Positions 8,226-27,362 of a DNA stretch of 39,697 nucleotides are shown piece after piece (position 1 is the first letter of the stretch; every line of letters starts with the position of its first letter). The stretch is from assembly GCA_043811275.1 (NCBI GenBank), contig JBDRNG010000039.1:1-39697 (forward strand), in the 5' to 3' direction. Source of the stretch: Candidatus Falkowbacteria bacterium (lineage in GTDB: Bacteria > Patescibacteriota > Patescibacteriia > Patescibacteriales > XYC2-FULL-47-12). Made by a program: the position numbers and the translations under genes. Below the pieces are notes generated by a model. The model ran no database searches, was not told the DNA's origin, and saw only the letters and a program-made list of their open reading frames with translations.

Positions 8226-8649
8226 TCCTAAGGGGGGAATAGAATTTAAGAAACACATGAATCCGAAAATCTAAATTTGTACTAAAATTAATATAAAAAA
8301 TATTAAAAAATAACTAAATTAATTCGTGATAATTCGTCTAATTCGCTAAATTCGTGTGCTATTTTCTATTTTTATGGCACACCTGCCTTCGCTAAAGCTA
8401 CAGCAAGGCACGCGAATTGGACGAATTGAATAAATTTACACGAATGTTAAACAAAAAATCGCCCCACAGAGATAGGATGCCAGTACAAAGGCAATCTTTT
8501 AGCCATGAACATTGTATGCGCGTTAAACTCTGTCAATAAAAAAGACACCCAAACAAGACATCTCTATAATATGTTATACAAATATAAAAACGTGGCAGTG
8601 CCACTCTACGTTTAATGTTATGCGATATGTGTTCCACGTTATGCGAGCT

Positions 8650-9069
8650 TTAACGTTTTGACCATTGCGGCGCTCGACGGGCTTTTTTCAAACCAGGTTT
8701 TTTACGTTCTTTCTTGCGAGCATCACGAGTAGTTAAGCCACTTGCTTTTAAGGCTGGTTTTGCTTCTTTATTTATAATTAATAAAGCGCGGGTGATACCA
8801 TGACGGATTGCTTCTGCTTGTCCGACTTTACCGCCACCTTTTACTAAAATAGAAAATCCTAATTCTTTATCAGCTCCAGCTAATTTTAATGGCTGCATAA
8901 TTAAGTTGATTGATTCTTTGGAAGGAAAATAATCTTTTACATCTTTGTCATTTACAATAATAACACCTTTACCATTTTTATATAGGCGTATTTGAGCCGC
9001 AGATGTTTTTCGTCTGCCAATAGCGGTAATATATTTTCCTGTAAATTTTTCTTTTGTTTCTTCGGGCAT
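8650..9069 (-). CDS. rpsI: 30S ribosomal protein S9
   Basis: GRRKTS, GGGKVGQAEAIRHG and ERKKPGLKKARRAPQWSKR. Confidence 0.98.
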   Translation of the reverse strand: MPEETKEKFTGKYITAIGRRKTSAAQIRLYKNGKGVIIVNDKDVKDYFPSKESINLIMQPLKLAGADKELGFSILVKGGGKVGQAEAIRHGITRALLIINKEAKPALKASGLTTRDARKKERKKPGLKKARRAPQWSKR

Positions 9070-9127
9070 AATTAGAGTCTAAAGTTTAAAAGTCATAAAG
9101 TCTAAAGTCCATTTGACTTTTTTATTT

Positions 9128-9484
9128 TTAACTAATTTTTAATCGCTTTATCATTTCTTTACGTAATTTATTTTTAGGCAGCATATTCCAAACAGCTTTG
9201 CGTAAAACTTCGGTTGGATTCTTTTCAAAAAATTCATTTAATTTTGTAGTTTTTAAACTACCCGGATAACCAGAATGACGATAATATTCTTTTTGATCTA
9301 ATTTTTTTCCAGTAAATTTTGCTTGTTTAATATTTTTTACTTCTACCTCGTCGCCTATATCAATATTTAACTGGAATTCTGGTTTATGTTTTCCACGCAA
9401 AAGACCAGCAATTTCAGTAGCCATTCGGCCAATTGCTTTGTCAGTCGCATCTATTTTATGTAATTGTCGTTCTGTCTTATTCAT
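9128..9484 (-). CDS. rplM: 50S ribosomal protein L13 (short form)
   Basis: IDA..GRMA..LRGKHKP, YYRHSGYPG and MLPKNKL. Confidence 0.97.
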   Translation of the reverse strand: MNKTERQLHKIDATDKAIGRMATEIAGLLRGKHKPEFQLNIDIGDEVEVKNIKQAKFTGKKLDQKEYYRHSGYPGSLKTTKLNEFFEKNPTEVLRKAVWNMLPKNKLRKEMIKRLKIS

Positions 9485-9485
9485 A

Positions 9486-9681
9486 GTTCAAGTTATTTTT
9501 TACGGATTTACACTGTTATCAAACCATTAATTCGAATATATTGTACGGATTAAACCAGACGTGCAACTATCCGAATACCACAAATTCTGCATTCGGAGCA
9601 TTCGGATAATCGCGCGAAAATATAGATATATATACATCATATTCGGATTAAGGGATTGCAAATGATTTAATCCCGCACAAA
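9486..9681 (-). repeat. Rod-like structured element, copy 1, filling the rplQ-rplM spacer
   Basis: Nested stems (ATCCGAAT/ATTCGGAT) with G-U pairs on the minus strand. Homologous to 13110-13358 and 27005-27335. Confidence 0.75.
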
Positions 9682-9688
9682 GATACTT

Positions 9689-10039
9689 CTACACTAATTC
9701 TATCTGCACAACTTTTGCGCCATCGCCCTGTCTTGTCCCTAGTTTCACTATTCTAGTATAACCACTTTTTCTATCTTTATATTTTTCTCCTAAAACTTCC
9801 ATTAATTTTTTAACAGCCATTTTTTGTGGCAATTTTTCTAATAATTTACGTCGCGCATTTAAATCACCTTTTTTACTAATAGTAATCAATTTATCAACCA
9901 ACGATCTGACTACTTTTGCTTTGGCTTCAGTAGTAGTTACCTTTTCATAAATAATAATACTGGATGCTAGATTTCTTAGCATCATTTCTCTGGGCTGTTT
10001 TTTTCTATCTAAAATTTTTGTCTTAATTCTGTGACGCAT
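9689..10039 (-). CDS. rplQ: 50S ribosomal protein L17
   Basis: MRHR start at 10039, TTEAKAK and GYTRIVKLG.RQGDGA. Confidence 0.97.
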   Translation of the reverse strand: MRHRIKTKILDRKKQPREMMLRNLASSIIIYEKVTTTEAKAKVVRSLVDKLITISKKGDLNARRKLLEKLPQKMAVKKLMEVLGEKYKDRKSGYTRIVKLGTRQGDGAKVVQIELV

Positions 10040-10064
10040 ATTTTTAAATAAATAATTTAACAAT

Positions 10065-10886
10065 TTATTTTTCCTCATCTTCTTTGTCTGTAATAGATTC
10101 ATCGTCAGCGGATTCATCATCTTCTTCTTCCTGTTTCTTCTTTTTTTTGTCAGATTTCTTTTTCTTAGATTTATCAGCAGGTGCTTCAGCTGATTGTTCT
10201 AATAGAAAAGAAAATTGTTCAACTAAAATTTTAGTTACTTCTTGAAGTGCTTCTTTAAAATCAATAGTGCCGTCTGTTTTAATATCGATGACCAATTTGT
10301 CCCAGTTAGTCATTTTACCAACGCGTACATTTTCTATTTCAACTTTAACAACTTTGACCGAACTGAAAACAGCGTCTATATCAATATAACCAACTTCTTT
10401 TTCCTGATGTTCACGGCCTTCAATTGGAAGATAGCCATAGCCGTGCATAATAAATATTTCTAATTCAACTTCTGTTTTCTTATCAGTTATTTCTAAAATA
10501 TGTAAATCTTTACTGGCAACTTCCACCTTACTGTTTTTAGTAATATCATCGGCAGTAACTTTTTTAATACCAGATACTTTTAATTCTAATTTTATTACTT
10601 CATTTTCTGTTGGTTTAAAAACTTTCAGACGCAATTGCTTTAAATTTAAAATGATTTCCAACACATCTTCTTTTACACCATCAATAGTGGTAAACTCATG
10701 GCTGGCATTTTTAATTTTAACGCCGATTACAGCCGCGCCTGGCAATGAAGATAATAATACTCGGCGGATACCGTTGCCTAAAGTAGTGCCATAGCCAGGA
10801 TAGCATGGTTCAATTACCACCTGTCCACTATTTTTTTCTTTACTGGGCGTAAAGGTAACTTTTTTTGGTAAAACTATATTATTCAT
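10065..10886 (-). CDS. rpoA: RNA polymerase alpha subunit, NTD only with a charged tail
   Basis: GYGTTLGNGIRRVLLSSLPG, HEF..GVKEDV.EIILNLK and VENVRVG-like motifs, located between rpsD and rplQ. Confidence 0.97.
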   Translation of the reverse strand: MNNIVLPKKVTFTPSKEKNSGQVVIEPCYPGYGTTLGNGIRRVLLSSLPGAAVIGVKIKNASHEFTTIDGVKEDVLEIILNLKQLRLKVFKPTENEVIKLELKVSGIKKVTADDITKNSKVEVASKDLHILEITDKKTEVELEIFIMHGYGYLPIEGREHQEKEVGYIDIDAVFSSVKVVKVEIENVRVGKMTNWDKLVIDIKTDGTIDFKEALQEVTKILVEQFSFLLEQSAEAPADKSKKKKSDKKKKKQEEEDDESADDESITDKEDEEK

Positions 10887-10923
10887 ATAAAAATATTTAA
10901 TAAATTATGAAATAATTGCAAAA

Positions 10924-11529
10924 CTATCTGCGAGAATAATATTCAACTATTGCTTGCGTATCTATATTTCTTTCTACTTCATCTTTACTAGGGACGTGTA
11001 ATACTTTGCTTTCCATTTTTTTGGCGTCAAAATTAAGCCAGCCCGGCAAAATTTCTGCTTTCGTGCCTAATTGTAAATTTTTAAAATACTTTTTATTTTC
11101 CTTCCCTTTATGTAAAGTCATCACATCGCCTTTGGTAACTCTATAGGAAGGAATATTAACTTTTTTATTATTTAATAGAAAATGTCCATGATTAACTAAC
11201 TGTCTTGCTTGCGCGCGAGTTTCAGCAATTCCTAAACGATAAACTACGTTATCAAAACGCATCTCTAAAATTTTTAATAAATTTTGGCCGGCATCGCCTT
11301 CTACCTTAGTCGCCCGATCAAAAGTTAATCGGAATTGTTTTTCGGTAATATTATAAATTACTTTGGCTTTCTGCTTTTCCGCTAATTGCAAGGCGTATTC
11401 AGTTAAACGCAAACGCCCCTTGGGTCCTTGGACTCCAGGAGGATAATTACGACGGGCAACCGGACATTTGGCTGATTGACATAATTTTATGCCATAACGG
11501 CGACATGATTTGTGTGAATATCTTTTCAT
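10924..11529 (-). CDS. rpsD: 30S ribosomal protein S4
   Basis: EYALQLAEKQK, LEMRFDNVVYRLG, ARQLVNHGH and IVEYYSR. Confidence 0.98.
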   Translation of the reverse strand: MKRYSHKSCRRYGIKLCQSAKCPVARRNYPPGVQGPKGRLRLTEYALQLAEKQKAKVIYNITEKQFRLTFDRATKVEGDAGQNLLKILEMRFDNVVYRLGIAETRAQARQLVNHGHFLLNNKKVNIPSYRVTKGDVMTLHKGKENKKYFKNLQLGTKAEILPGWLNFDAKKMESKVLHVPSKDEVERNIDTQAIVEYYSRR

Positions 11530-11604
11530 TGTATCTTTTTGTTATATAATTTTTGTTTAAAACTTTGCTATTATTCAAAATTTTGCGATTAACTCACTAT
11601 TTAC

Positions 11605-11902
11605 TCACTACTAATTACTAATCCCGAGTACTCGGGACTAATATACCAAAATTCGTTGTCTCGTTGCTTAGAAATTGTTATAATTAGAAATTTGTTGCTT
11701 CGAAATTCGAAATTAGCCCGCCCGCCTAACTGCGTTAGCAGGCTGGGCAGGTAATAGAAATTAGAAAATCGAAATTCGTATTTTTCTAATTTCCAATTTC
11801 GATTTTCTATTACCGCGCCCGACTGACGCCGTCAGCGTTCGGGCGAGCGATTTTCTAATTTCGTGACAACTAATTTCTAAAATTGGTATATTAGTAATTG
11901 GC
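11605..11902. repeat. Nested hairpin complex between rpsK and rpsD
   Basis: Outer TTACTAAT..ATACCAA / TTGGTATATTAGTAA arms, inner 7-mer (AGAAATT/CGAAATT) arrays in inverted orientation, and three GC-rich palindromes inserted. Confidence 0.8.
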
Positions 11903-11909
11903 AGGACCA

Positions 11910-12431
11910 TTAGACTCTTCGTGGTTTACGTGACCGACAGCCATTGTGAGGAATCGGCGTTATATCTTTAATAGAAATAATATTAATTCCATTGGCATTT
12001 AAAGCTCTGACAGCTGATTCGCGTCCAGTGCCTACGCCTTTTACAAATACAGCTACTTCTTTTAGGCCGTGCTCTTTAGCTTTTTCTACCGCTTTTTTAG
12101 TAATGATCTGCGAAGCATAAGGAGTGGCTTTTTTTGCTCCTTTAAAACCGCAACTACCAGCGCTAGCCCAAGAAAGCACATTACCGTTCTGATCTGATAA
12201 AGTTACAATGGTATTATTATAGGTGGCTTTAATATTAGCTCGACCAACTGATATATTCTTTTTTTCTTTTTTCTTTTTCTTGCTTTTTGTTTTTCTAATT
12301 TTTTTATTTTCAATTTCTTGCTCATCAATCCCGCTCAACGGGACTGTTTTATCTTTTTCATTAACAACCACTCCTGCTTTAACTTCAGAGACTTCATCTT
12401 TTTTTGTTTTTTCTTTTTTTTCTGCAATCAT
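11910..12431 (-). CDS. rpsK: 30S ribosomal protein S11 with charged N-terminal extension
   Basis: [21 protein letters not shown] and [11 protein letters not shown]. Confidence 0.98.
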
Positions 12432-12507
12432 AATAATTCATTATTAGCTCCCTTTCCATCAGGGAGAGGGTTGCCTGCCCCGTCGGATGACGGAAGGGTG
12501 AAGGAAT

Positions 12508-12900
12508 TTAAGTTTTTTGCGCTGTTGCCTTCTTACCTGAAGTAGCAGTCTTTCTAATATTACCGCGCACTGTGCGTGAATTTGTTTTAGTTCTTTGTCC
12601 GCGCACTGGCAACCCCTTAGTATGCCTTAATCCTCGGTAACAATTTATTTCTTTTAATCTTTTTATATTACTAGAAACTTCTCGACGCAAATCACCTTCT
12701 ACTGTATATTCTTTTTCAATAATAGTACGCAATGTATTCACTTCATCTTCTGCTAAATCTTTTACACGAGTATCAGGATTTATTTTTGTTTTTGCTAAAA
12801 TTTTATTAGACACGCTTCTGCCCACACCAAAAACATAGGTTAAAGCAATTTCAACCCGTTTTTCATTTGGAATAGTTGTGCCTGCAATTCTAACTGCCAT
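12508..12900 (-). CDS. rpsM: 30S ribosomal protein S13
   Basis: [26 protein letters not shown]. Confidence 0.98.
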
Positions 12901-12994
12901 ACTTTATTACATTTAACATCTGACAAATAATGTTAATCAACTGTCAAATGTCGCACTTTGCGCATTACTTGTAGTCCGTAGCTTTAGCGAAGGA

Positions 12995-13108
12995 CTATCC
13001 TTGTCTTTGTTTATGTTTAGGATTTTTACATATAACATGCACCCGCTTTTCACGGCGGATAATCTTGCAATCTTTACAAATTTTTTTTACTGACGATCTT
13101 ACTTTCAT
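12995..13108 (-). CDS. rpmJ: 50S ribosomal protein L36, zinc-binding type (absent from ORF track)
   Basis: Manual translation [37 protein letters not shown]. Confidence 0.97.
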
Positions 13109-13109
13109 A

Positions 13110-13358
13110 TGTTCAAGTTATTTTGTGCGGATTTATTAGCATATTAAACCATTAATCCGAATACTTCGTGTCTATTTAGAATTTCCTGCAACTATCCGAA
13201 TACCACGAATTCTATATATCCAAATTTGTAGTAAACATCTGGGGCATTTTTACCCCCAAAGCTTTAGCGTAGGGCGGGCACGTAGTTGCATGAAAGTATA
13301 GAGATGCACAGCTCATTCGGATTAAACGATCATCTATATTAATAAGTCCGTACATATT
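13110..13358 (-). repeat. Rod-like structured element, copy 2, filling the infA-rpmJ spacer
   Basis: Shares GTTCAAGTTATTTT..CGGATTTA..AAACCATTAAT.CGAATA..TGCAACTATCCGAATACCAC with copy 1. Confidence 0.8.
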
Positions 13359-13368
13359 TAAACTAATG

Positions 13369-13623
13369 TTACATTCTATAAGTAATTCGTCCCTTACTTA
13401 AATCATAGGGGCTCATGTCAATTTTTACCTTATCTCCCGGCAAAATCTTAATTTTATACATTCTCATTTTACCTGATAAATGGCATAAAATTTCGTGTCC
13501 ATTTTCTAAACGCACTAAAAAAGTAGCACCAGGCTTTAATTCTAATACCTCTCCTTGTGCTTCTATGAAATCTTTAGCATTAATAACTGCTTCCTGCTCC
13601 TTATTATTCTTTTTTTGAGTCAT
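13369..13623 (-). CDS. infA: Translation initiation factor IF-1
   Basis: [27 protein letters not shown]...[13 protein letters not shown]. Confidence 0.98.
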
Positions 13624-13751
13624 TAATATATCTTTGATAACTTAAAAAAATCCTACTTAGTTCTTCTTCTTAAAAAAACCCGTAGAATTCTTAAAAAAAC
13701 TTAATATTTTGTATTTGTGTATATTTGTGTATAAATGTATAATGTAGAATT

Positions 13752-13780
13752 ATTATATATTTTATTGAAAAAAGTGTCAA
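13752..13780 (-). promoter_or_regulatory. Consensus sigma70 promoter of the infA-rpsI operon
   Basis: Minus strand TTGACA, 17 bp, TATAAT. Confidence 0.85.
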
Positions 13781-13928
13781 GTGCGGGTGAAATATGTACA
13801 GAATATTTGATTTTCTGATAGTCTTTAGTATAAAAAAGCAACTTTTTCTGAAAAGATGCCTTGAAAAGATGCCTTTTTATTGCCTTGATTAACAAAACTA
13901 CTTATTTTTTTATCTCTGATACTATCTT

Positions 13929-14058
13929 TTTTGTCATCCTGAGTGTAGCGCCTGCTCGCCTTGGGGGGGGAGCGAAACGAAGGATCTATTTGTGTATTAT
14001 ACAAATAGATTCTTCATCCCAATTCCGTTTCACTGCATCGGGATTCAGAATGACAAAA
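13929..14058. repeat. REP-like element of the TGTCAT(C/T)CTGA...TCAGAATGACA family
   Basis: Terminal inverted repeat with inner GAAGGATCT/AGATTCTTC stem. Relatives at 36048-36225 and a half copy at 71-126. Confidence 0.8.
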
Positions 14059-14081
14059 ATAAAGTATATTACTTAAAATGT

Positions 14082-16511
14082 TTACATACTCCCCAACTTC
14101 TGCAAAATCACATCTTTAGTCGCTTGATCCGGAATAACATCCACTAATCTTCTATAATATTCCTTGGCTTTGCTTTTCTCTCCTAATGTTTCATACATCA
14201 TAGCTAAACTATAAATAGCATTGGCGTGATTTGGACTTACTTTTAGAATTGAATTAAAAACTGTTTCGGCTTTAATTAAATCATTATTTTTTTGCGCAGT
14301 TCCTGCCTTTCCGGCTACGCTTAAATCTTCCTCCTCTACCGCATCATCATAATCTTCGTTAGAAGTAATTTCAGTGGTTTGTTGCTGGGTTAAGCTTTGT
14401 CCACTAACTCCTTTATTAAAATATAATCTGCCTAACTCAAAACGATAGTCTATGCTATTAGGAGCCGCTACAACAGCGTTGCTAAGATTTTCAATCGCTT
14501 TATCAAAATCGCCCTTGCGTTCATAGACGATAGCGATACCATAGTAAGCTGGGGCTAAATTAGGTTTTTTCTTAATAGCCTGTTCATAATATTTAATGGC
14601 TTCATCATAAAAATATTGTTTTTCTTCATCAGCTTCTTCCTGATTTGATTGCGCCATTTTCACTAGTGCTAATCTGATGTAAGGAGTTGGGCTATCCGGC
14701 TCTAAAGAAACAACTTCATTATAATACTTTTCCGCCCATTCTAATGATCCGCCAATTCCATAAACAGCGGCATTCTCATAAATTAAGGCCAGTGACTCAT
14801 TATTAACGGCGCTGTTAGGCGCTAGATCCACTGCTTGTTTGCCAGTGTTAATGGCAGAACTTATTAATTGCTGGATTAAAGCAACATCAGCCTTTTGACC
14901 TAGTGCTACTTCTTGATTGGCTCGCATTAAATAAAGTTTAGATAACTGCAAATAGTACTGATCATTTTTATTAAAAGTAACTATTGCTCTATTTAAATCA
15001 GCAATCGCTTCTTCAACATTTTCTCTTTTATTTATTTTATTAGCGTAAAAATCAGCTAGATATACCTTGAACCCACTAGTGAAAAGCATTACTACTCCAG
15101 CGCTAACTAATAAAAATAAGGCTGATAGCGCTAAAGCATATTTAGGAGATGATCTAAATGATAAAACTATTTCTTTAAATTTTTCTGGATAATTATCTAT
15201 TATTAACGCTGTTGCCAATGATCCTAATATTACAATTTCTAAAATAATAACACCTGAGACAGCGCTTATTAAAGCATTAATAATTAAAACCGCTACGCTG
15301 GAAAAAATTCCCAAAAGCAATAATCTTTCCTTATTATCACCTGCTTTCATTAAACTGATAAAAGCAATGCTGATAAAAATCAAACCAACAATCAACAGAC
15401 TGAAGGCGCCGAGTATGCCGATAGTTACTAACATTTCAAAAAAATTTCCGCTAGCTGTGTCAAAACGAACTGTCCATAAATTACTGTCATTAAAATCAGT
15501 GCCACGATATTTGGCAAAAGCATAATTAAAAGTTGCCGGTCCACTACCGAATAAAGGACTATTTTTTAAACTATCTTTAGCAATATTCCAAGATAAACTA
15601 CGTGATAAACTTACTTCGGTCGGCAATTGCACGTTAATTAAATTAAAATTGCCACCGACTAATAAAAAAATAAGAAATAAAAAAACCGCTACGGGAGCAA
15701 ACATGTCTTTTTGCTTTAAAGTAATAACTTGTGACAAGGTAAACATTAAAACAATGATGACGCCTAAAATTGCGGCTGGCCAAAAAATAAAATTATTTAA
15801 TAAGAAAAGAAGCGCTAAAGAAGTTAATATTAATAAAATAACAACCACTCGCAAAATAATATTTATTACTTTTTTAACAACTGAGCTGGCTTTACTCATT
15901 ATTAATACTGGAGCGATGATTGTTAAAAATGGAAGAATGGACGCAATAAATACCCCTAGCGATGATGAACTGCCAATTGGATTAAAGGAAACTGTTTTAG
16001 TAGCGGCAAAAGGAAGGATGAAAATTCCGAAAATTTGCAGAGTAGAATAAATAATAATTAAAGCAAAAGAACTTAACAGCGCCCAAGTAAATAATTTAAT
16101 TCTTTTCGGCGTAATATTATTAACTAACAAATAATAAAAAGCTATATAAGCAATAAAGGCGATAAAGCTTTTAGTAGTCGCGCCAAAAAATCCTAAAAAA
16201 CTACCTCCTTTATCAACTGAAAAAATTGAAGAAACTAATAGGATAATTGTTAAAACCGCTAAAGCTATATCCAAAGGCGTTCGCTTTACCCGCAATTCTC
16301 CGGTAGCAACGCCTTTAGTAACCCAAGCCACTAAACCAAATAGAATGAGTAGATAAAATAAGATTACTTTTTCAAAAACAATACCCTGTGAAACTAAACC
16401 AGTAAAAAACAAGGGAATTAGTAAAAAAATTAAAAAATTAACAGCGGTGATAATAAAATCACATAATTTAATAAGGCTATTTTTCTCCTTAATTAATACT
16501 TCTTTAGGCAT
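14082..16511 (-). CDS. O-antigen ligase-like polytopic membrane protein with C-terminal TPR repeats
   Basis: Many TM segments, PLFGSGPATF loop, EMLVTIGILG, and TPR patterns (AIKKKPNLAPAYYGIA). Confidence 0.8.
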   Translation of the reverse strand: MPKEVLIKEKNSLIKLCDFIITAVNFLIFLLIPLFFTGLVSQGIVFEKVILFYLLILFGLVAWVTKGVATGELRVKRTPLDIALAVLTIILLVSSIFSVDKGGSFLGFFGATTKSFIAFIAYIAFYYLLVNNITPKRIKLFTWALLSSFALIIIYSTLQIFGIFILPFAATKTVSFNPIGSSSSLGVFIASILPFLTIIAPVLIMSKASSVVKKVINIILRVVVILLILTSLALLFLLNNFIFWPAAILGVIIVLMFTLSQVITLKQKDMFAPVAVFLFLIFLLVGGNFNLINVQLPTEVSLSRSLSWNIAKDSLKNSPLFGSGPATFNYAFAKYRGTDFNDSNLWTVRFDTASGNFFEMLVTIGILGAFSLLIVGLIFISIAFISLMKAGDNKERLLLLGIFSSVAVLIINALISAVSGVIILEIVILGSLATALIIDNYPEKFKEIVLSFRSSPKYALALSALFLLVSAGVVMLFTSGFKVYLADFYANKINKRENVEEAIADLNRAIVTFNKNDQYYLQLSKLYLMRANQEVALGQKADVALIQQLISSAINTGKQAVDLAPNSAVNNESLALIYENAAVYGIGGSLEWAEKYYNEVVSLEPDSPTPYIRLALVKMAQSNQEEADEEKQYFYDEAIKYYEQAIKKKPNLAPAYYGIAIVYERKGDFDKAIENLSNAVVAAPNSIDYRFELGRLYFNKGVSGQSLTQQQTTEITSNEDYDDAVEEEDLSVAGKAGTAQKNNDLIKAETVFNSILKVSPNHANAIYSLAMMYETLGEKSKAKEYYRRLVDVIPDQATKDVILQKLGSM

Positions 16512-16524
16512 ATATTTTAAACAA

Positions 16525-16879
16525 TTATTTTATTAATGGTTTTATTAATTTTTTTAATTTTGGTAGATCATTTTGGCATGTTTTCCATACTATTTCAAAG
16601 TCAACTTCAATATATTGATGAATAATAAAATTACGCATTGCAATAATATCGCGAAATTCAATTTCAAAATTTTTACTTTTAAAACTTTCGCTTAAATTAT
16701 TAATGGCTTCTAATGGCTTCGCCGATTGTGATTAGTTCTCTTTCTACGGCATCTTTAACTAAATCATTTTTTTTAAATTTTTTATAATCAAAGCCATTTA
16801 AATATTTCTTTATTTTATTAATAGCACCCCATATATGATTTAAATATTCAGTGTCATTTTTTGGTTTATTTATTTTCAT
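16525..16879 (-). pseudogene. HEPN (DUF86/HepT-like) toxin frameshifted by a 10-bp tandem duplication
   Basis: Removing one TAATGGCTTC copy (16701-16720) restores a 114-aa ORF with DAVERELITIGEA and the RNFIIHQY motif. It overlaps the MNT stop. Confidence 0.85.
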
Positions 16880-17174
16880 ATATTTTTTGCGCTTTTTTAA
16901 TTACCGACGATCTAAAAAATCGACTGATTGCCCGAGGAGTCAATAAATCTACTGGTTTGTCTATACTTTTAGAAAAATTTCTTTGAATATGGGATAATTC
17001 GAAATAACCAATGGACGCATTTTTTTTAAACTCAATCAAAATATCCACATCGCTTTTTGGATGTGGTTTTCCATAGGCGTAAGAGCCAAAGATGGACACT
17101 CTTTTAATATCTTTTTTATGAGGACTTTTTTCTATAGCTTGTTTAATTTTTTTCTTAATTTCTGTTTTATTCAT
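16866..17174 (-). CDS. Minimal nucleotidyltransferase (MNT/MntA-like antitoxin)
   Basis: IFGSYAYG...SDVDILIEF and VDLLT motifs, upstream of the HEPN gene. Confidence 0.9.
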   Translation of the reverse strand: MNKTEIKKKIKQAIEKSPHKKDIKRVSIFGSYAYGKPHPKSDVDILIEFKKNASIGYFELSHIQRNFSKSIDKPVDLLTPRAISRFFRSSVIKKAQKIYENK

Positions 17175-17267
17175 AATTAATATAAAACTTATTTAGAGTT
17201 GTTCACAAATACATACTAAAATATATAAATTCTTAACATAATTACTATACCATATTTTTATTAATGC

Positions 17268-17306
17268 AACAAAAAACAGCCTCAAATACTTGAAACTGTT
17301 TTTGTT
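17268..17306. terminator. Probable terminator hairpin
   Basis: AAAAACAG..TCAA/TTGA..CTGTTTTT inverted repeat downstream of 17346..19511. Confidence 0.55.
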
Positions 17307-17345
17307 AATTAATATTTTTTACTTCTTAATTCTTAATTCTAATTT

Positions 17346-19511
17346 CTACTCAAACTCCCCCACCTGAATCTTTCGCAAATCATCATTTTTAATACCTAAA
17401 CTTAAAAATCTCATTACATTGTAAGCGGTGTTACCATCGCCTAAATAATATCTTCGGCCATCGCTTGGGTTAATATACCAAGCTTCTCCGTGAGACTCCA
17501 CTTGCAAAGCGATTCTACCTTTCAATCTATTTATTAAACTTTGATTATAATTAAATTTTCCTTCTTTGTCCGGACGATAACCATTGAATATTTCTGATTT
17601 ATCATCAAAACCATCACCATCTGTGTCTGCTTTGTTCGGATCAGTGCCAATCGCTATTTCTAAATTATCTGGAATCTTATCTCCATCAGTGTCTTGCAAT
17701 GTATAAATTTTTTCTTGGATACCAATTGGGATAGTTTCTAAATCAGCGTTAGTTATTCCTAATCCCAGAGATCTCATGATGTCGTAAGAAGCCTGCCCGT
17801 CTTTCATATAGAACTTATTTTCTGATTCTGGATCTACATACCAGGCTTCGCCGTTGTTTTCTACCTGTAATAATATTCTACCTTTAATTCTATTAGTTAA
17901 TTCTTTATCTATTTTTTGCACTAATCTCTTTTCCATTTCCACTATTTTATTTTCTAATTGCGAGATGGTGCGTTCTAGCTTCAGGATGAGTAAGTCAGCC
18001 TTATCTTCAGAATAGCGGGCGTGGATTGAAGGTGCTTTTTTTATTGCACTGTTTGTTTGTGTTGCATTTTTAATTACATCATCTACTTGTCCATCACCTC
18101 CAACCGTAATTGTTTTAGTTGATGTATTATTAGCTTCATCGCTTTCAGTAATATCATTATCAGCATCAAGAGTAACCTTAACTGTGTATGTACCCGGAGT
18201 CATACCAAAAAATGTTGAGGTAATTTCACCTGAAGCTATTTTTTCACCTTCAGGTACTTCATTTCGCAACGTCGTTTGTCCATTAGTTAATACTATTGCA
18301 AAACCTCCATTAATTTCGCCAGGGCCAAGATTACTGTATTTTACTGTTATACCACCATCACCTTCTGTAATACCTTTAAAAAATAACTCCACTCCTACTT
18401 CAAGTTCTCTGGTTTCTAAATCTGTCTCGCCGTTTTCTTCGCCTTCATAAATAAACATCTGCGCATCACTACAGGCTCCGTGTCCAAAATCACCCGTTGA
18501 ATTACAAACTTTATATTCATAAGTACTCCCACTCATTAAGCTGTAATCTTCTCCAAAAATCCTCTCATGCTTAGTTGTTTGTGAATTATGAAAACCTCCA
18601 TTAATAATATTATTGTTCCATTTAGTGGTAAACCAATGGTCAGAATCAGCAAAACGCCATTTAACATTATAAAAATGACTCTTTAAATTTGTAGTCCATT
18701 CTGCTTTAGCTGTATTATTGGGTAAAATAGTCAGCGCTATATTATTAAAAACAGGAGGTTCACCCGAACCCACTGTTTTAAAAGTGATATAATCTTCGTC
18801 TTTGTTATTATTATTAACAATCCCATTATTTACCTCTGCGCTTGATATGTGGCATGTATATTCTGTATTTGGCTTTAGGTAATCAATGCCCATAGAATGA
18901 TAAATTCCGATTACATTTACATTAGTAGTTGGTTTTATTTCTTCATCAATACCAAACGCGCTACAAGAGGCTTCACCATTACTCAAAATATAAGGAGTTT
19001 TCCAATAAAGTTCAGCTCCAGTCCAACCTATGAACCTTGCTTGAGAATTTTTAATTTCAAGTTTTTTATTTCCTATAACATCATCAAAAGTAATAGATTT
19101 AACTAATGTATTATTACTTTCATCTGTTTCAACAAGTTTGTCTAAAGAATCAGGATAATTAACAATAAAAGTAATTAGATGTGTCTTGCCATCTGGTCTA
19201 ATGCCAAAATCGCTAAGTCCTATTTGAATATTTTTTGTTTCATTTTTATCATATACTCTGCCTGTGCCACTATATGATTTTTTTTCATCATACAAAGCTT
19301 TGACAAAATAATTTAATTGAGTGAGTGACTCTGTTTCATTAATATCTTTTATGGTCATACCAACACTAACTGTATCATCACCTATCACTGTTTGAAAGCT
19401 ATTTTCATCAAAAACAAAATCAGGAATTCCTTCTGCTTGCGCGCTATTTAAATTTAATATAATAAATGCCAGCGCGCAAACTAAAGTGAATAAAACTATT
19501 TTCCTAAACAT
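17346..19511 (-). CDS. Secreted surface protein with CARDB/Ig-like domains and CPR-type C-terminal repeats
   Basis: Signal peptide, two E.DE.NN CARDB ends, duplicated GRI.LQVE..GEAWY..P modules around DTDGD calcium-binding-like repeats. Confidence 0.75.
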   Translation of the reverse strand: MFRKIVLFTLVCALAFIILNLNSAQAEGIPDFVFDENSFQTVIGDDTVSVGMTIKDINETESLTQLNYFVKALYDEKKSYSGTGRVYDKNETKNIQIGLSDFGIRPDGKTHLITFIVNYPDSLDKLVETDESNNTLVKSITFDDVIGNKKLEIKNSQARFIGWTGAELYWKTPYILSNGEASCSAFGIDEEIKPTTNVNVIGIYHSMGIDYLKPNTEYTCHISSAEVNNGIVNNNNKDEDYITFKTVGSGEPPVFNNIALTILPNNTAKAEWTTNLKSHFYNVKWRFADSDHWFTTKWNNNIINGGFHNSQTTKHERIFGEDYSLMSGSTYEYKVCNSTGDFGHGACSDAQMFIYEGEENGETDLETRELEVGVELFFKGITEGDGGITVKYSNLGPGEINGGFAIVLTNGQTTLRNEVPEGEKIASGEITSTFFGMTPGTYTVKVTLDADNDITESDEANNTSTKTITVGGDGQVDDVIKNATQTNSAIKKAPSIHARYSEDKADLLILKLERTISQLENKIVEMEKRLVQKIDKELTNRIKGRILLQVENNGEAWYVDPESENKFYMKDGQASYDIMRSLGLGITNADLETIPIGIQEKIYTLQDTDGDKIPDNLEIAIGTDPNKADTDGDGFDDKSEIFNGYRPDKEGKFNYNQSLINRLKGRIALQVESHGEAWYINPSDGRRYYLGDGNTAYNVMRFLSLGIKNDDLRKIQVGEFE

Positions 19512-19620
19512 ATGTCTTTTTTAATTGTTAAATTGTTTTATTGTTAATAACAATGAAACAATTTTATTAATTAATAATTTTTTAACTTTAAGCTTTAGAC
19601 TTTGAACTTTAGACTTTAGA

Positions 19621-21546
19621 CTATTCCACCTTCCCATACCCCTTCCCTACTTCATCATCTTCCAGGTTGGTGGTTTTAGCTTTAGTGCTTAAGCTAATTA
19701 TACCTGCGCTGACAGTGTCTTCAGCGCTAACATTGGCTGGATTTAGCAATGACACTATTTTATTCTTATCAACGTCAGTCGGAGTAAAAATAATACTAAA
19801 TTCCGCTATGGCTGGTTCATCTATAACGTCCCATTCGTTAATAGCCCAAGATATTTCTCGACTATTAGAATCGTATAATATTTTTCCAGCGCTGTTACTA
19901 TAATTACTTTCCCAGTTGACATTGGCTGGCAATTTAACACTGGTGGTAATATTTTTTAAATCATGGCGAGAATTAGTTAAAGTCCAAAAAACTTTAAACT
20001 TGGTTTGTTCGCCGACTTTAGGTGGCAACGGCCCTTCACCGACAGCAATGTTATTGCGGTCAAAATAACGAACTTCATTTTTAAATGCTAAATCACTGTT
20101 AACTTTATTTACTACTCTGGTTACTGATTGGCCGTTGTCTTTAAGCTTGCTGTCAATGCTATAATCCAGCGAACTTATAATATTAAAATCTGCTGTCGCT
20201 ATTTTTTTTGCTTCTTCAGCTGTTTTTACTTTCAGAGAAAAGCTAAAACTACTTTCTTCATCAGGGCTGATATTGCTTAAAGAATTTACTTCTTCTTTGG
20301 TCCAAATAATGGAATTTCCCCGCCGTTCACCTTTATTATTATCAACTAAATCATCCCAATCAACCATAACCGAATCTACCGTGGCCATAATTGCCACATT
20401 TTTTAAACTAGCGTCGCTATTATTTTTATAATGCAGTACATAATTTAGGGCATCGCCTAAATCTACTGCTTTATTTCCCAATGAACCATTCACTGACAGG
20501 CTTAATTGCAACGCTCCTTCGGCCACGGCCGCGCTTAAATCATATTCAGCAAAGATATGTTCAGTGACAGACATTTTTCCGTCTAGCTCAATTTCTTGAG
20601 GAATAAAAAATACTAATCTTAAATTATCAGTTTGGGGCTTCTTTTTGTATTTTCCTTTAATTATTAATTCTTGTTTTTGTTCAGTTAAATCATTGATTTC
20701 CCACTCACCTGTTTGACTATTACTAATGACAAAATTATCATCATGCTCAAGACGAATTTTAAAGTAATCAAAAAAACTTTCTTTTTGTTTGGTATATTCA
20801 AGTTTAATTTCCGATTCTTCATTAACATGAAAAAATGACGGCGCTTCCACATTTAAATTAACTCCGGTTGAAGAAACTTTAGTAGTTATTTCTTTTTCTA
20901 CGTCAAAAGTTGAACTAAAATTTTCCGGCCGATAAGTAATAAAAGCTTTGATGGCCTGTTCGCTTTCTAACGGAGCAATAATTATCGCTTTAACAACTAT
21001 CCGACCACTTCGTTTAATATCAATTTGTTCAAGCTGCCAGGAAGCAAGCGCTGGATTATTATCCCCGCCAGCTGTTACCGGAGCCGCGTCTAATACAACA
21101 AAACCTTCCGGATACATTAAATTAATCTGCACATCGCGCAAATTAAATTTGCTTAAATTTTTATACTGCAGTTCATAAACAACTTCTTCTCCAGCTACTA
21201 CCTCTTCTGGTCCGATAATATTAAATTCTATATCTTCCGTGCGCATCCTTGCTCCAGAATTGAACAAAAAAAATAAAAACCAAGAAACAATAGTAATCAT
21301 TCCTAATAATACTAAAAACATCACTGTTATTTTTTTCCAAGGATCTGCCTGTTTTCGATGAAATACAGAAGATGGTTGTGTTGGTTCACCGGATACAGAG
21401 CTTTTATCGCTATTATTATCATCATTTCCATTCTGATAAATTTCTTTAATACTGGCGTCCAATTTGCTATCTTGTTCTTTTTCTTTTAACAGTTTGGCAA
21501 AATTTTCTTCTTTATTATGGTTATTATTGTTATCTTGTTTAGACAT
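19621..21546 (-). CDS. Membrane-anchored protein with Ig-like (DUF11-like) domains
   Basis: One N-terminal TM helix, beta-rich repeats (Y.L.YKN.S), GEGPLPPKVG motif. ATG at 21546 preferred. Confidence 0.7.
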   Translation of the reverse strand: MSKQDNNNNHNKEENFAKLLKEKEQDSKLDASIKEIYQNGNDDNNSDKSSVSGEPTQPSSVFHRKQADPWKKITVMFLVLLGMITIVSWFLFFLFNSGARMRTEDIEFNIIGPEEVVAGEEVVYELQYKNLSKFNLRDVQINLMYPEGFVVLDAAPVTAGGDNNPALASWQLEQIDIKRSGRIVVKAIIIAPLESEQAIKAFITYRPENFSSTFDVEKEITTKVSSTGVNLNVEAPSFFHVNEESEIKLEYTKQKESFFDYFKIRLEHDDNFVISNSQTGEWEINDLTEQKQELIIKGKYKKKPQTDNLRLVFFIPQEIELDGKMSVTEHIFAEYDLSAAVAEGALQLSLSVNGSLGNKAVDLGDALNYVLHYKNNSDASLKNVAIMATVDSVMVDWDDLVDNNKGERRGNSIIWTKEEVNSLSNISPDEESSFSFSLKVKTAEEAKKIATADFNIISSLDYSIDSKLKDNGQSVTRVVNKVNSDLAFKNEVRYFDRNNIAVGEGPLPPKVGEQTKFKVFWTLTNSRHDLKNITTSVKLPANVNWESNYSNSAGKILYDSNSREISWAINEWDVIDEPAIAEFSIIFTPTDVDKNKIVSLLNPANVSAEDTVSAGIISLSTKAKTTNLEDDEVGKGYGKVE

Positions 21547-21553
21547 AGTTACA

Positions 21554-22030
21554 CCCCACAAATCTACAAATCAGCTACAAATAATACAAATCTCTATTTT
21601 TGTAGATTATTAGGATTTAAAATTCTAATGGATTTAACACCACTAGGTGTGAAGTTAGCTAAAATAGCTAGTTTTAAACCTGTAATTTGGAGATACTGTT
21701 TAACTTGATCCATATTCTGTTTTGAAAAGTGATTTCCTTTTTTTATTTCTAAAACTATTTTTTCATCTACAATAAAATCTATATAATTCGTAGCTATAAT
21801 TTTATTATTAACTCTAATTTTATACGGAGCTTGTCTTGTGTATTTTATGTTTCTGCTAATAAAATATTGTTCAATTCCTTTTTCGTAATATTTTTCTTTA
21901 TATCCATAACCTAACTGATTATATGTTTCAAATAATATACCTACTATCTGATAGCTTAAATCTTTATGTAGCACTTTATTGTCGTTCATAGCATTTGTAT
22001 TATTTGTAGCTGATTTGTAGATTTGTGGGG
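21554..22030. mobile_element. Inverted-repeat-bounded GxxExxY cassette (putative mobile or intervening element)
   Basis: Perfect 38-bp inverted repeats at 21554-21591 and 21993-22030 enclose exactly one gene. Confidence 0.65.
21594..21989 (-). CDS. GxxExxY protein (PD-(D/E)xK nuclease-like)
   Basis: LGYGYKEKYY, IDFIVDEKIVLEIK, Q...YL and LANF motifs. Confidence 0.92.
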   Translation of the reverse strand: MNDNKVLHKDLSYQIVGILFETYNQLGYGYKEKYYEKGIEQYFISRNIKYTRQAPYKIRVNNKIIATNYIDFIVDEKIVLEIKKGNHFSKQNMDQVKQYLQITGLKLAILANFTPSGVKSIRILNPNNLQK

Positions 22031-22033
22031 GGG

Positions 22034-24016
22034 TTAACGTTCCTTTTCTACCTGATAATAGTTTAACACAAAATCAGCAATTTCCCTAAAAAGCGGAGCC
22101 GCCGAAGAAGCGGAAAAACGAACATCTTTAGGGTCTTGCAGGTAAGCTATCATTACAAACTGTGGGTCATCCACTGGAGCAAAGCCAACAAAAGAATGAT
22201 TAGTTCGGTTGGAATAACCGCGAACAATACTGGAAGCGATCTGGGCTGTGCCAGTCTTACCAGCGACATAATATCCTTCCACTTCTGCCAGTTTAGCATG
22301 GCCACCATCAACCACATTAACCAGCATGCCAGACACTAAAGCGGCGGCTCGTGGCGAAATAACTCGTTTTAATTCTTGTGGCTGTGTTTTGATTCGCTCG
22401 CCGTCCGGCTTAATAATTTCGTCAATAATATATGGCTTAACTAAAATTCCCTGATTAGCGATAGCGGCAAAAGCAGTTACCATTTGCAAAGGAGTGGTCG
22501 TAATGCCTTGTCCAAAAGAAGCAGTGGCCATGTTAAGATTTCCTCCTAAATTTTTATGATACAAAGAACTAATATTACCCTCGCTTTCTGTTTTTAATTT
22601 AATACCGGTTTTTTCTCCAAAGCCAAAATCTTCCATATATTTTATGAAATTATTAATGCCTACTTTTTGAGCAACATATACCGCGCCAGTATTAATTGAA
22701 TTTTCTAATATTTGATTTATAGTAACATCGCCATAAACAAGGTCGTCAGAGTTATGAATGGTTTCGGTTGCTAAAGTAACTGATCCAATATCATGAAAAA
22801 TGCTATCCGGCTCCACTAACCCTAAGTCAACCCCCATGGCCATGGTAATGGGCTTAAAGATTGAGCCTGGTTCATAGGCTTGAAAAATGCCAATATTATT
22901 AAAATATTTTAGATCTTTTGTCTTGCCATAATCATTAGGATCAAAATCAGGATAAACGCACATAGCGATAATAGCCCCCGTTTTTGGATTCATAATTATG
23001 ACAGCGCCTAAATCAGCTCCGTGTCGTAAGGTTGATTCATTAAGTTTACGGCAAGCTACATTTTGAATTGTTTTATCAATTGTTAAAATTATGTCATCGC
23101 CATTAATCGCTGGATTAAACTGGCGGTCAGCGGCAATGATTGTTTGTCCACTAGCATCACGTTCAGCGACTAACGATCCCATCACTCCTTTTAATTCATT
23201 ATTAAAATACCCTTCTACCCCGTAAGATCCTTGACTTAATTCATTATTACTATTGGCAATAACATAACCCAGTACATGCGAAGAAATATTTTTCTCTGGA
23301 TAATAGCGATAACTGCTCATAGAATAATCAATGCCTTTAATTTTCAAAGCTAAAATTTCCGCCAACTTTTCTTCATTAACTTTTTTTGCCAACGGCTCAT
23401 AAGGATCACCACGTTTGGAAAGTTTTTTAAATAATTCTTCCGAATATTCTTCTAACTTTTTTTCATGATCTTGTTCTATTTCTTCTTCAATAGCCAAACG
23501 TTCTTTCTCTAACGCCACCGCTAACTGCTCTTCATTAATAACTATCTCTTCTCCTGCCTTTAATTTACCAGACGCCTTAATTTCATTAGCCATTTCTTCA
23601 CGCAAACGTTGTTCAACTACTGCCACTAGATGCTCAACATCCGGTTCTTTATAAACTAAAGTAAATAAAACCGGCGCTAATTTCTTTACCGCATCTTCTG
23701 GATCAAGAACATCTTTTGGCACTGTATAAATTAAAGCAAAATCTTTATTAGCGGCTAAAGGATATAATTCGCTTTTATTATTATCACCTTCTTTGCTACG
23801 TACAAAAATACGCCCTCTCTCTGGCATAATTTCTTTATCCACGCCGTGCTGTCGCAATGCTTTAGCGGCGTATAAATCATAATTTAATAATTGCACATTA
23901 AATAAACGAATAATAATAGCTATGGCAAATAAAAAAATAATCGCTACAAGCAGTGTGATGCGATTATCTTTATCTAAACGACCGTTATTTTTTTTATGAT
24001 ATAAGCTCCAAATCAT
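22034..24016 (-). CDS. ftsI: Class B penicillin-binding protein (FtsI-like)
   Basis: ERGRI, RYYP, EPGSIFK (SxxK), SIN (SxN) and KTGTAQ motifs, in mraZ-rsmH-ftsL context. Confidence 0.9.
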   Translation of the reverse strand: MIWSLYHKKNNGRLDKDNRITLLVAIIFLFAIAIIIRLFNVQLLNYDLYAAKALRQHGVDKEIMPERGRIFVRSKEGDNNKSELYPLAANKDFALIYTVPKDVLDPEDAVKKLAPVLFTLVYKEPDVEHLVAVVEQRLREEMANEIKASGKLKAGEEIVINEEQLAVALEKERLAIEEEIEQDHEKKLEEYSEELFKKLSKRGDPYEPLAKKVNEEKLAEILALKIKGIDYSMSSYRYYPEKNISSHVLGYVIANSNNELSQGSYGVEGYFNNELKGVMGSLVAERDASGQTIIAADRQFNPAINGDDIILTIDKTIQNVACRKLNESTLRHGADLGAVIIMNPKTGAIIAMCVYPDFDPNDYGKTKDLKYFNNIGIFQAYEPGSIFKPITMAMGVDLGLVEPDSIFHDIGSVTLATETIHNSDDLVYGDVTINQILENSINTGAVYVAQKVGINNFIKYMEDFGFGEKTGIKLKTESEGNISSLYHKNLGGNLNMATASFGQGITTTPLQMVTAFAAIANQGILVKPYIIDEIIKPDGERIKTQPQELKRVISPRAAALVSGMLVNVVDGGHAKLAEVEGYYVAGKTGTAQIASSIVRGYSNRTNHSFVGFAPVDDPQFVMIAYLQDPKDVRFSASSAAPLFREIADFVLNYYQVEKER

Positions 24017-24119
24017 GCTTTAGTTGATTAGTTACATAGTTACACAGTTGACTAATTTTTAAAAACAACACCTAATTAACTAAACAACTATTTAACTATG
24101 TAACTGATTAACTGATTAA

Positions 24120-24503
24120 CTAATCCGCCATAGCAACATTTTCATTTTTAAATTCAATATAATCAATTTCATTAACACTAACCATTTCTAATTCTTGAAT
24201 GCGTTCTTGCAGTCCTTTATAAGATTCTAAATTCATGACAATTAATTCTAAGTCTCTATTATTCTTTTTTAAATCTTGAACGCTATTTTTTATTTCATTA
24301 ATAGCAAAACCCTGTGAAATAAGATGATTACTAGCCACAAAATAACTAATACTCACAATTAATATTAATGAAGCTAAAAAATAATTCAATGTTTTCATGT
24401 TCAACTGTAATGGCAAGCGCATTCTTCGCACCTGCGCGGCATAACCATACAAATTATTTCTGCCTTCGCATTCTTTAAATTTAGTTGTTGTTAATTCCTC
24501 CAT
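24120..24503 (-). CDS. ftsL: FtsL-like cell division protein
   Basis: Single TM helix followed by a coiled coil, between rsmH and ftsI. Start uncertain. Confidence 0.6.
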   Translation of the reverse strand: MEELTTTKFKECEGRNNLYGYAAQVRRMRLPLQLNMKTLNYFLASLILIVSISYFVASNHLISQGFAINEIKNSVQDLKKNNRDLELIVMNLESYKGLQERIQELEMVSVNEIDYIEFKNENVAMAD

Positions 24504-24667
24504 GTTAATCAACTTATAATAATAAATACTGTAATATTACATGTGATGCTAATTAACTGTCATTGCGCTACGTTTATGAGCGGATCGCAATGACAGTTAA
24601 GTCGTAAATCGTAAAATTAGCATCATATTCTTTCTGCTTCCCTCTTCCGCCAGCTGGCGGATTTGCG

Positions 24668-25696: not shown

Positions 25697-25697
25697 T

Positions 25698-25823
25698 TTA
25701 TCCTAAAATAAGTCTTAAAGTTTCAGCTTCCGCGCCGACTGAAGAAATTAACATAATGAAGACCGGCACAATAATAACAGCTAAAATAAAAATTAAATTT
25801 GGTATTATATTTATTTTTGTCAT
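25698..25823 (-). CDS. Unannotated 41-aa single-TM protein
   Basis: MTKINIIPNLIFILAVIIVPVFIMLISSVGAEAETLRLILG*. Stop is 1 nt before the rsmH ATG and GAGG lies upstream. Confidence 0.55.
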   Translation of the reverse strand: MTKINIIPNLIFILAVIIVPVFIMLISSVGAEAETLRLILG

Positions 25824-25964
25824 ATTCCTCTCATCCTAACCCTCTCCCCCAGGGAGAAAAAACTTAAATGAATTAAATTATTTTCGCCCCCCTCGCCCCG
25901 AAGTACTTCGAGAGGTGGGGGGTGCCTGCCCGCCCAGCTTACAAAGCTTGTGGAGGGAGGGAGT

Positions 25965-26393: not shown

Positions 26394-26430
26394 TAGGTTG
26401 AATTTAGAATTTATAATTAAAAATTTAGAA

Positions 26431-26787: not shown

Positions 26788-26825
26788 ATACTATTTTTTA
26801 ATTCTAATTTCTTAATTCTTAATTG

Positions 26826-27003
26826 CCTGTAAGGTGCAAGAGAAGTATGGCTGAACTCAGACGGATCCAAATTCACCCAAACCCCTTCTATACCTTAGTG
26901 ACTTAATTACTAAGCTTAAGGCGCTTAGCAACCTTTGTCCCTCTAACAGGACTTTTTATTTTTGCAGGTTTGAGCGTTTATAGTCTAAGCTCAAACTATC
27001 TGC
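26826..27003 (-). ncRNA. Candidate structured leader RNA upstream of mraZ
   Basis: Several stems with G-U pairs favouring the minus strand, e.g. UGAAUUUGGA-UCCG-UCUGAGUUCA and GUUUGAGC/GCUCAAAC. Confidence 0.4.
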
Positions 27004-27004
27004 T

Positions 27005-27335: not shown

Positions 27336-27362
27336 TTAGAAGTATACTAAATTAATTTTAAT

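Follow-up and report, generated by a model that had tools for sequence, protein, structure and literature searches.

The spacers directly upstream of the ribosomal protein genes rplM and rpmJ in a Candidatus Falkowbacteria genome form long nested stems, and both lie on contig C39 (JBDRNG010000039.1), of which the whole stretch of 39,697 nt was analysed (the window). We consider it probable (about 72%) that these spacers represent insertions of a dispersed DNA repeat that is palindromic and non-autonomous and resembles a transposable element of the miniature inverted-repeat type (MITE) or a hairpin-forming doublet of repetitive extragenic palindromes (REPs; doublet, REPIN), and that this repeat is co-transcribed inside operons. 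It has colonised one Patescibacteria family related to Ca. Falkowbacteria. The hairpin is a by-product of inverted conserved blocks and not a structure kept by compensatory change, and the spacers show no sign of a dedicated regulatory RNA.

The host is a bacterium from groundwater, and its genome (GCA_043811275.1, here G000) comprises 664,648 bases in 52 contigs with 34% G+C, and its completeness by marker count is 58.7%. Its RpoA has its nearest named relatives in Ca. Falkowbacteria (59–65% identity), placing it in the phylum Patescibacteria. The comparison set held 40 related genomes: ten others of the same taxonomic family (f1; seven genera), including the same-genus genome G001, and 30 others of the order, among them those of a second family, f8. 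All genomes compared are incomplete metagenome-assembled genomes (MAGs), and related genomes are not independent samples. Genes across G000 were called with a simple longest-open reading frame (ORF) script, and distances to start codons are approximate.

A dispersed repeat of two inverted arms and its distribution

The rplQ-rplM spacer (9486-9692, about 200 nt; copy 1), the infA-rpmJ spacer (13111-13367, about 260 nt; copy 2) and a third site (27005-27358; copy 3) are mutually homologous according to repeat search (families D2 and D12) and alignment. The sequence-only reading of this DNA had described the first two spacers as homologous and as forming nested stems, which the repeat alignment and the folding z-scores (-4.29 and -3.73) bear out; its limits were drawn too narrowly, as the elements reach 9692, with the rplQ stop codon included, and 13367. 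It had counted three copies, whereas the genome holds about 25 loci. BLAST searches with the three copies gave matches on many G000 contigs, a profile built from their 3′ halves found 43 arms at 25 loci, and a 40-arm profile found 45–46 arms (45 at E<=1e-5).

Each complete element consists of two inverted, homologous arms of 103 nt arranged head to head, the outer ~25 nt of which align. At least 17 loci are two-armed (198–324 nt), with inner ends facing each other across 0–122 nt, and the remaining loci, about 5–8, are single arms. Every arm contains two tandem units of ~40 nt with short internal inverted repeats, organised as ATTCGGAT, ~20 nt and TAAATCCGYACAAA. Across the arm alignment the blocks ATTCGGATAGTTGCA and ATTCGGATTAA are at least 90% conserved and an AAATCCG block at least 70%, with freely varying columns between them. 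The arms fall into two types, told apart by the four terminal bases: the A-type outer end reads ...ACTTGAAC, the B-type outer end ...ACTTCTAC/T, whose complement GTAGAAGT contains TAG. Typing of the ends by eye gave 13 A+B loci, three B+B loci and one with a truncated arm. All 25 G000 loci are intergenic by our own ORF calls; ORFs within the elements reach at most 85 aa, and the two that were checked gave no Pfam match. The family shows the descriptive features of a MITE: small, non-coding, dispersed (25 loci in 665 kb), with inverted ends and with presence/absence differences among relatives. Directly after several B-type ends stands the motif TAGTAATTAGTAG with several stop codons (G000 C5:15636-15650, C22:38308-38322 and C22:32415-32430; G001 loci L022 and L063), which may be an optional extension of the element.

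All arms in the window were read on the minus strand. In copy 1, the A-type arm (the 3′ arm of the transcribed strand) spans 9486-9588 (nhmmer 9588->9486, E 2e-26) and ends in ...ACTTGAAC, and the rplM ATG at 9484 starts 1 nt beyond. The B-type arm (5′ arm) spans 9589-9692 (match 9591-9687, extrapolated to 9692), and its outer end GTAGAAGT includes the rplQ stop TAG at 9691-9689. The A-type arm of copy 2 (13111-13213, E 4.6e-28) has the same terminus, ...ACTTGAAC, 2 nt from the rpmJ ATG (13108). The terminus ...AAAATAACTTGAAC that both copies had been noticed to share is confirmed; it stops 1 nt ahead of the ATG in copy 1 and 2 nt ahead of it in copy 2. The opposite arm of copy 2 is divergent and B-like (13264-13367; extrapolated from matches 13283-13358, E 4e-7, and 13272-13360) and begins 1–4 nt past the infA stop codon. 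Nested in the middle of copy 2 is a GC-rich stretch (13241-13283, approximate bounds from the pairwise alignment of G001 and G000), which is missing from the orthologous G001 copy.

Copy 3 has an A-type arm at 27005-27108 (E 1.9e-21), the outer end of which adjoins no gene, the nearest ORF start being 217 nt off. Its 5′ arm (27109-27358) was delimited by alignment with G001 locus L066, with flanks matched, and is split by three GC-rich mini-hairpins (~27290-27322, 27210-27245 and 27151-27187). Copy 3 therefore equals the intact two-armed G001 orthologue plus three nested mini-hairpins of 26–37 nt, all of which G001 lacks. As had been noticed, it lies just past a promoter-like site: a sigma-70-like sequence, TTGACA-17-TATGAT (27398-27426, minus strand, read from the sequence), is located ~40 nt upstream, so that this copy would form part of a 5′ leader. 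In the interval from copy 3 to mraZ, G000 carries a gene for a 23S-rRNA-intervening-sequence protein (PF05635; 26431-26787); at that position G001 has a 244-nt two-armed copy of the repeat and the gene is missing. Pieces resembling the GC-rich mini-hairpins of copies 2 and 3 turn up on many contigs and also occur at 37-78 of the window.

The arm model R1 matched all ten other f1 genomes, with 3–54 arm matches each, and both f8 genomes (4 and 8 matches). Weak matches (1–2) were found in three of the 28 remaining genomes of the order, and outside f1 any match at all was obtained in five of 30 genomes. A scan of public genome contigs with a 15-nt arm motif returned mostly chance matches; six of the 80 retrieved loci had real arms, and these came from three MAGs, one of them of the Patescibacteria group.

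At the rplQ-rplM junction none of the ten relatives has an arm, the spacer measuring 2–4 nt in seven of them and 21–37 nt in three; the 34-nt spacer of G001 may be the remnant of an element end. The element between infA and rpmJ is common to G000 and G001 only, with 2–5 nt in five other relatives and unrelated short-repeat sequences in three. Both insertions at ribosomal protein sites are recent. Among 80 metagenome rplM loci, three carried an arm, none of them at rplQ-rplM, and a complete element was present between rplM and rpsI in two metagenome loci (L231 and L233). The closest relative in a metagenome scan with L13 was 78% identical, and no closer pair of filled and empty sites was found. 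In contigs from four DNA runs over 8500-28400, none of the joints listed skips copy 1, 2 or 3.

Most element sites are shared between G000 and G001. At two sites G001 has the element and G000 an unrelated GC-rich palindrome, and at C22:33548 G000 retains just the last 15 nt of the element beside the ATG, the rest having been replaced. At a given junction, one repeat family gives way to another. Such sites turn over and other small repeats are nested in copies 2 and 3, which is the behaviour of mobile DNA and agrees with that part of the sequence-only reading which had allowed for a mobile element. The GC-rich palindromes of G000 with ends GTCATTGCGAG...CTCGCAATGAC (C22:33548-33716 and C22:28128-28291) stand at junctions that hold the AT-rich repeat in G001. 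Loci L046-L052 of the relatives (infA-rpmJ and rpmJ-rpsM) contain other palindromes of short tandem motifs, for example of the ATTCGTAGATTAGCAT type and the TACGAAG/CTTCGTA type, and the filling of junctions by repeats seems to be common throughout family f1. Within the window, arrays of the short motifs AAATCCGT / AAATTCGT recur in the intergenic stretches 2130-2183 and 8318-8371 (repeat family D11).

Position between stop and start codons

The genes around copies 1 and 2 are housekeeping genes on the minus strand, identified by Pfam: L17/rplQ (9689-10120) and L13/rplM (9128-9484), IF-1/infA (13369-13623) and L36/rpmJ (12995-13108), accompanied in the same part of the window by S13, S11, S4, RpoA and S9, all on that strand. 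The setting is the same across the genome, with elements between genes of conserved order (adk-map, infA-rpmJ, rplQ-rplM, nusG-rplK, ssb-rpsR, ftsE-ftsX, rpsA-ftsH and a tRNA gene-infC) and further ones upstream of rpmE and dnaE. After hand correction of the counts for rpmJ, rplQ, the tRNAs and two spurious ORFs, 17 of 24 start-facing outer ends lie within 0–5 nt of the start codon, 13 of 17 stop-facing outer ends overlap the stop codon or lie within 5 nt of it, and two outer ends abut tRNA 3′ ends. The flush stop codons comprise seven TAG, five TAA and one TGA, compared with 86 TAG among 503 genome-wide (binomial p 0.003); the stop of rplQ is TAA in nine of ten relatives and TAG in G000. The median same-strand spacer in G000 is 107 nt.

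Start codons in this genome are not preceded by a Shine-Dalgarno (SD) signal. The sequence ahead of 520 G000 genes is A-rich and lacks a G-rich peak, and an SD-like 4-mer occurs in only 76 of them. SD-independent initiation is therefore a property of the organism and not of the element, and the earlier proposal that the element aids such initiation loses its ground, since initiation of this kind is not confined to the genes behind it. The A-rich last 25 nt of the arm resemble the native pre-start sequence. Sigma-70-type promoters are not above chance in the arms (18 found, 21.9 expected); copy 1 has one weak site with 9/12 matches, which is not above the shuffle expectation. A perfect promoter-like site, TTGACA-17-TATAAT (13752-13780, minus strand; 12/12 matches in the promoter scan), is located upstream of infA, and copy 2 is thus probably transcribed within the infA-rpmJ unit. 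A search of RNA runs for the stretch 8650-13623 listed none that contains it.

Taken as a mobile palindromic repeat, the element would owe its spread to an enzyme that acts in trans and binds the conserved blocks, and it would settle, or be kept, in the short gap that separates a stop codon from the following start. There it would persist because the upstream gene can end at the TAG at or in its terminus, while its A-rich last 25 nt act as an SD-free pre-start region. Gene context and promoters suggest that it is carried along in operon transcripts, where the long duplex may be a substrate of RNase III, by analogy with Correia and enterobacterial repetitive intergenic consensus (ERIC) elements. 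RNase III is encoded in G000 and in nine of the ten relatives.

The Correia elements found in Neisseria (Correia repeat enclosed elements, CREE) and the ERIC elements found in enterobacteria are MITE-class sequences of ~100–160 bp that are often co-transcribed with neighbouring genes, and transcripts of Correia elements are cut by RNase III. Like the present family, they are small non-coding palindromic repeats with inverted ends and many dispersed copies, the sites of which differ among relatives. The likeness meant here is one of design. The present element is longer (about 200–270 bp) and built from two 103-nt arms, each with two tandem sub-units; moreover, its ends sit on stop and start codons inside essential operons of a Patescibacteria host without an SD signal. 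ERIC sequences are reported to change the cleavage and stability of mRNA and to have TA beside their termini (PMC3184786). TA is likewise enriched at the ends of the present element, where it follows the arm in ~17 of 40 cases, but T at position -1 of start codons is general in G000 (59% of genes), and the TA therefore does not show a TA duplication. In the same source, Neisseria REP2, the Borrelia upstream repeats, the Rickettsia palindromic elements (RPE) and other repeats fused to ORF ends are described as lying directly upstream of genes and giving initiation signals, or as extending or replacing the 3′ ends of genes (PMC3184786). The present element resembles them in that its end supplies TAG stops and, in metagenome locus L231, the last two codons of L13 together with the stop; unlike them, it has no promoter or SD in its arms and no insertion within coding sequence.

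Several observations weigh against a mobile repeat of the ordinary kind. By hand tally, both ends are flush in nine of the 17 two-armed elements, whereas spacers of at most 10 nt make up 220 of the 81,930 element-free non-coding bases (0.3%). Of the ~22 genes that directly follow an element, six code for ribosomal proteins or initiation factors. Placement is thus far from random, and a plain MITE inserting at random does not predict the pattern. Close relatives offered no clean pair of empty and filled sites, so that no target-site duplication can be defined. The arm pairs of G000, G001 and G007, all incomplete MAGs, are compact throughout and none flanks a gene-sized insert, in a search that did not extend to plasmids and phages; no pair of solo ends flanks an ORF in G000. 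Finally, overall identity among the copies is ~62–67%, yet in some blocks conservation across genera exceeds 90%, which fits a long-term sequence constraint and possibly a host function beyond mobility.

The placement reflects either a preference of the insertion machinery for stop-start junctions or the loss of insertions elsewhere. A more specific version of the mobile repeat, which we put forward as speculation, is a module specialised for junctions: it would target the 2–5-nt gaps of translationally coupled genes and bring along a TAG stop and an A-rich, SD-free leader, and its RNA would fold the stop beside the start or be cut by RNase III.

RNA structure and alternative explanations

Copy 1, folded as the transcribed strand, forms a single long nested hairpin (-60.1 kcal/mol, z -4.29, none of 200 shuffles as good), and its inner stem has the three G-U pairs on that strand that had been read from the sequence before; the opposite strand is less stable (-44.8 kcal/mol, z -2.97). 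Copy 2 gives a long imperfect hairpin. Its outer stem had been thought to pair better on the plus strand, which has to be corrected, as both strands fold equally well (transcribed strand -68.1 kcal/mol, z -3.73; opposite strand -68.5 kcal/mol, z -4.31). Across 13 elements the transcribed strand is the more stable one in five (mean difference -0.4 kcal/mol, Wilcoxon p 0.95), and the strand advantage of copy 1 is therefore an individual accident. Mismatches on the transcribed strand of these elements show no excess of G-U (96) over A-C (107); on the A-forward strand of the element the numbers are 100 and 84, respectively.

Orientation relative to transcription, for which a check had been suggested, is mixed: among two-armed A+B loci whose neighbouring genes define a direction of transcription, the A end faces the downstream start in seven and the B end in six. 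The suggested check for covariation was likewise negative. Among 36 two-armed elements from G000 and its relatives, complementarity of arms in cis was 0.636, whereas shuffling the partners gave 0.646 +/- 0.008 (at least as high as observed in 449 of 500 shuffles), and at the 43 variable columns it was 0.402 compared with 0.419 +/- 0.015 (427 of 500). Arms are as similar within an element as between elements (identity 0.62 in both cases), and RNAalifold found no consensus structure inside single arms. Two homologous arms in inverted order thus suffice to produce a hairpin, and the pairing itself shows no sign of upkeep. The proposal of a structured RNA, acting as a processing site or an aid to initiation, consequently falls on orientation, covariation, G-U content and strand preference.

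Rfam returned no match at the gathering score for the whole window and none at E<=1 for the 6.6 kb around copies 1 and 2, in agreement with the earlier statement that the element is no known riboswitch or ribosomal protein leader. It is like the ribosomal protein leaders and riboswitches of Rfam in its position upstream of ribosomal protein genes and in its predicted stable fold, and unlike them in its lack of an Rfam match and of covariation and in its absence from the same junctions in other genera. Unlike ribosomal protein leaders, it also precedes ftsH, dnaE, ftsX, pilin-like genes and others. An intrinsic terminator and an integron attC site were set aside from inspection of the DNA, since the flanking genes belong to the housekeeping core and keep their conserved order, and the stem is not followed by a T-run.

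It is unlikely, in our judgement, that the host retains the repeat for a function as an exapted cis-acting RNA, in which an imperfect hairpin of ~90 bp would be cut by RNase III or would stabilise the upstream cistron, and the stop, brought beside the start, would keep or tune coupled expression. The position of most copies between co-directional housekeeping genes (adk-map, infA-rpmJ, rplQ-rplM, nusG-rplK, ssb-rpsR, ftsE-ftsX and rpsA-ftsH) would suit such a role, as would the perfect promoter-like site upstream of copy 2, the coincidence of the ends with stop and start codons, the RNase III genes, and the effects on mRNA cleavage and stability reported for ERIC (PMC3184786). The 15 nt kept at the ATG at C22:33548 of G000 and the 34-nt stretch before rplM in G001, possibly an end remnant, point the same way. 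Yet this explanation has to contend with the lack of compensatory change, G-U bias and strand preference, and with the occurrence of both orientations (seven and six). Single arms, which are unable to form the rod, also fill junctions flush, as at ftsE-ftsX (C13:23693-23794); one element is enclosed by convergent genes (C22:27100-27297), others occupy spacers between divergent genes; and the sites turn over between genera.

The other alternatives concern what moves or holds the DNA. Under one of them, the element is a REPIN-like doublet moved by a transposase of the REP-associated tyrosine transposase (RAYT) type (Y1, HUH) acting on single-stranded DNA hairpins, with the A and B arms as the two REP types of a bacterial interspersed mosaic element (BIME) and the asymmetric last bases as cleavage or target motifs. 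We regard this as quite improbable. The likeness to REP, BIME and REPIN-RAYT systems extends to inverted doublets accompanied by singlets, two unit types that alternate in orientation, a strictly extragenic location, and RAYT-like genes in the lineage; in addition, each arm contains two small imperfect palindromes, and the last four bases distinguish the arm types. Y1_Tnp proteins occur in all ten relatives, several of them with HUH and RAYT-like C-terminal motifs, and some Y1 genes are flanked or invaded by GTAG-headed, GC-rich palindromes, which suggests that systems of the REP/RAYT type are active in the lineage. However, these palindromes are unrelated to the present element, and they make the GC-rich mini-hairpins the likely REP partners; those nested in copies 2 and 3 match the REP pattern better than the element itself. 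None of 12 Y1 loci has a complete arm within ~1.5–2 kb, one of them having three weak partial arms at a distance of at least 1.1 kb, and G000, at 58.7% completeness, yielded no Y1 gene. Y1 matches are weak in the arm-rich genomes G001 and G007, in contrast to a strong match in G006, where three arms occur. The ~40-nt units within AT-rich arms of 103 nt are also unlike short GC-rich REPs. The scattered mini-hairpins and the palindromes around Y1 genes nevertheless suggest the existence of REP/RAYT-type systems in a Patescibacteria lineage.

One Y1 locus of G001 (L295; G001:C22, ~12945-13676) has a RAYT-like ORF of 244 aa with in-frame GHCPVP...VGA peptide repeats, whose coding DNA consists of GC-rich palindromic repeats that have inserted into the gene. 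At its terminal bases the A end resembles the fixed target tetranucleotides of the IS91 family; a search for the corresponding Y2 transposase (HUH, IS91-type; PF04986) matched none of 11 genomes, and the control genomes were likewise silent. A PD-(D/E)XK gene (PF13366; 21594-21989) elsewhere in the window is flanked by perfect inverted repeats of 38 nt (21554-21591 and 21993-22030). Paralogues are located at C30:58552-58947, C30:31581-31910 and C13:30171-30503 of G000, the family is present in all 11 f1 genomes, and in metagenome contigs from runs X2, X4 and X5 the two 38-nt repeats are joined without the gene. This locus looks like a small mobile gene cassette together with a gene-less derivative.

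Very improbable, lastly, is an array at the DNA level in which the ATTCGGAT and AAATCCG blocks bind a nucleoid-associated or regulatory host protein and are kept for chromosome organisation or transcription control: the high conservation of ATTCGGATAGTTGCA and ATTCGGATTAA beside freely varying columns, its extent across genera and the different short-motif palindromes that other genera hold at the same junctions would fit, but no binding protein is known, sites turn over rapidly, sister genera range from 3 to 54 arms, promoters in the arms are no more frequent than chance, and conserved blocks are equally expected if spread requires that transposase-binding sites be kept.

Implications for Patescibacteria genomes

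At the level of abstracts, the literature yielded no account of MITE-, REP- or RAYT-type repeats in Patescibacteria. Genomes of this phylum are usually called streamlined; yet, by rough gene calls, 37.5% of the intergenic DNA of G000 resembles another intergenic region, an unexpectedly high repeat content for a genome of less than 1 Mb, and a single repeat family fills ~25 gene junctions, those in ribosomal protein operons included. For annotation this implies that a seemingly conserved hairpin in front of a ribosomal protein gene in such MAGs calls for a search for further copies across the genome before it is labelled a riboregulator.

The feature that most deserves attention is the precise fit of the mobile palindromic repeat between the stop and start codons of essential, tightly packed genes. 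The family is suited to the question of how small mobile repeats find, and survive in, the few bases between coupled genes, and to that of the effect of a long hairpin on polycistronic mRNAs translated without Shine-Dalgarno pairing. Should the element indeed be a module specialised for junctions, a streamlined bacterium without SD signals would tolerate 200-nt insertions in its ribosomal protein operons and may use them to uncouple cistrons.

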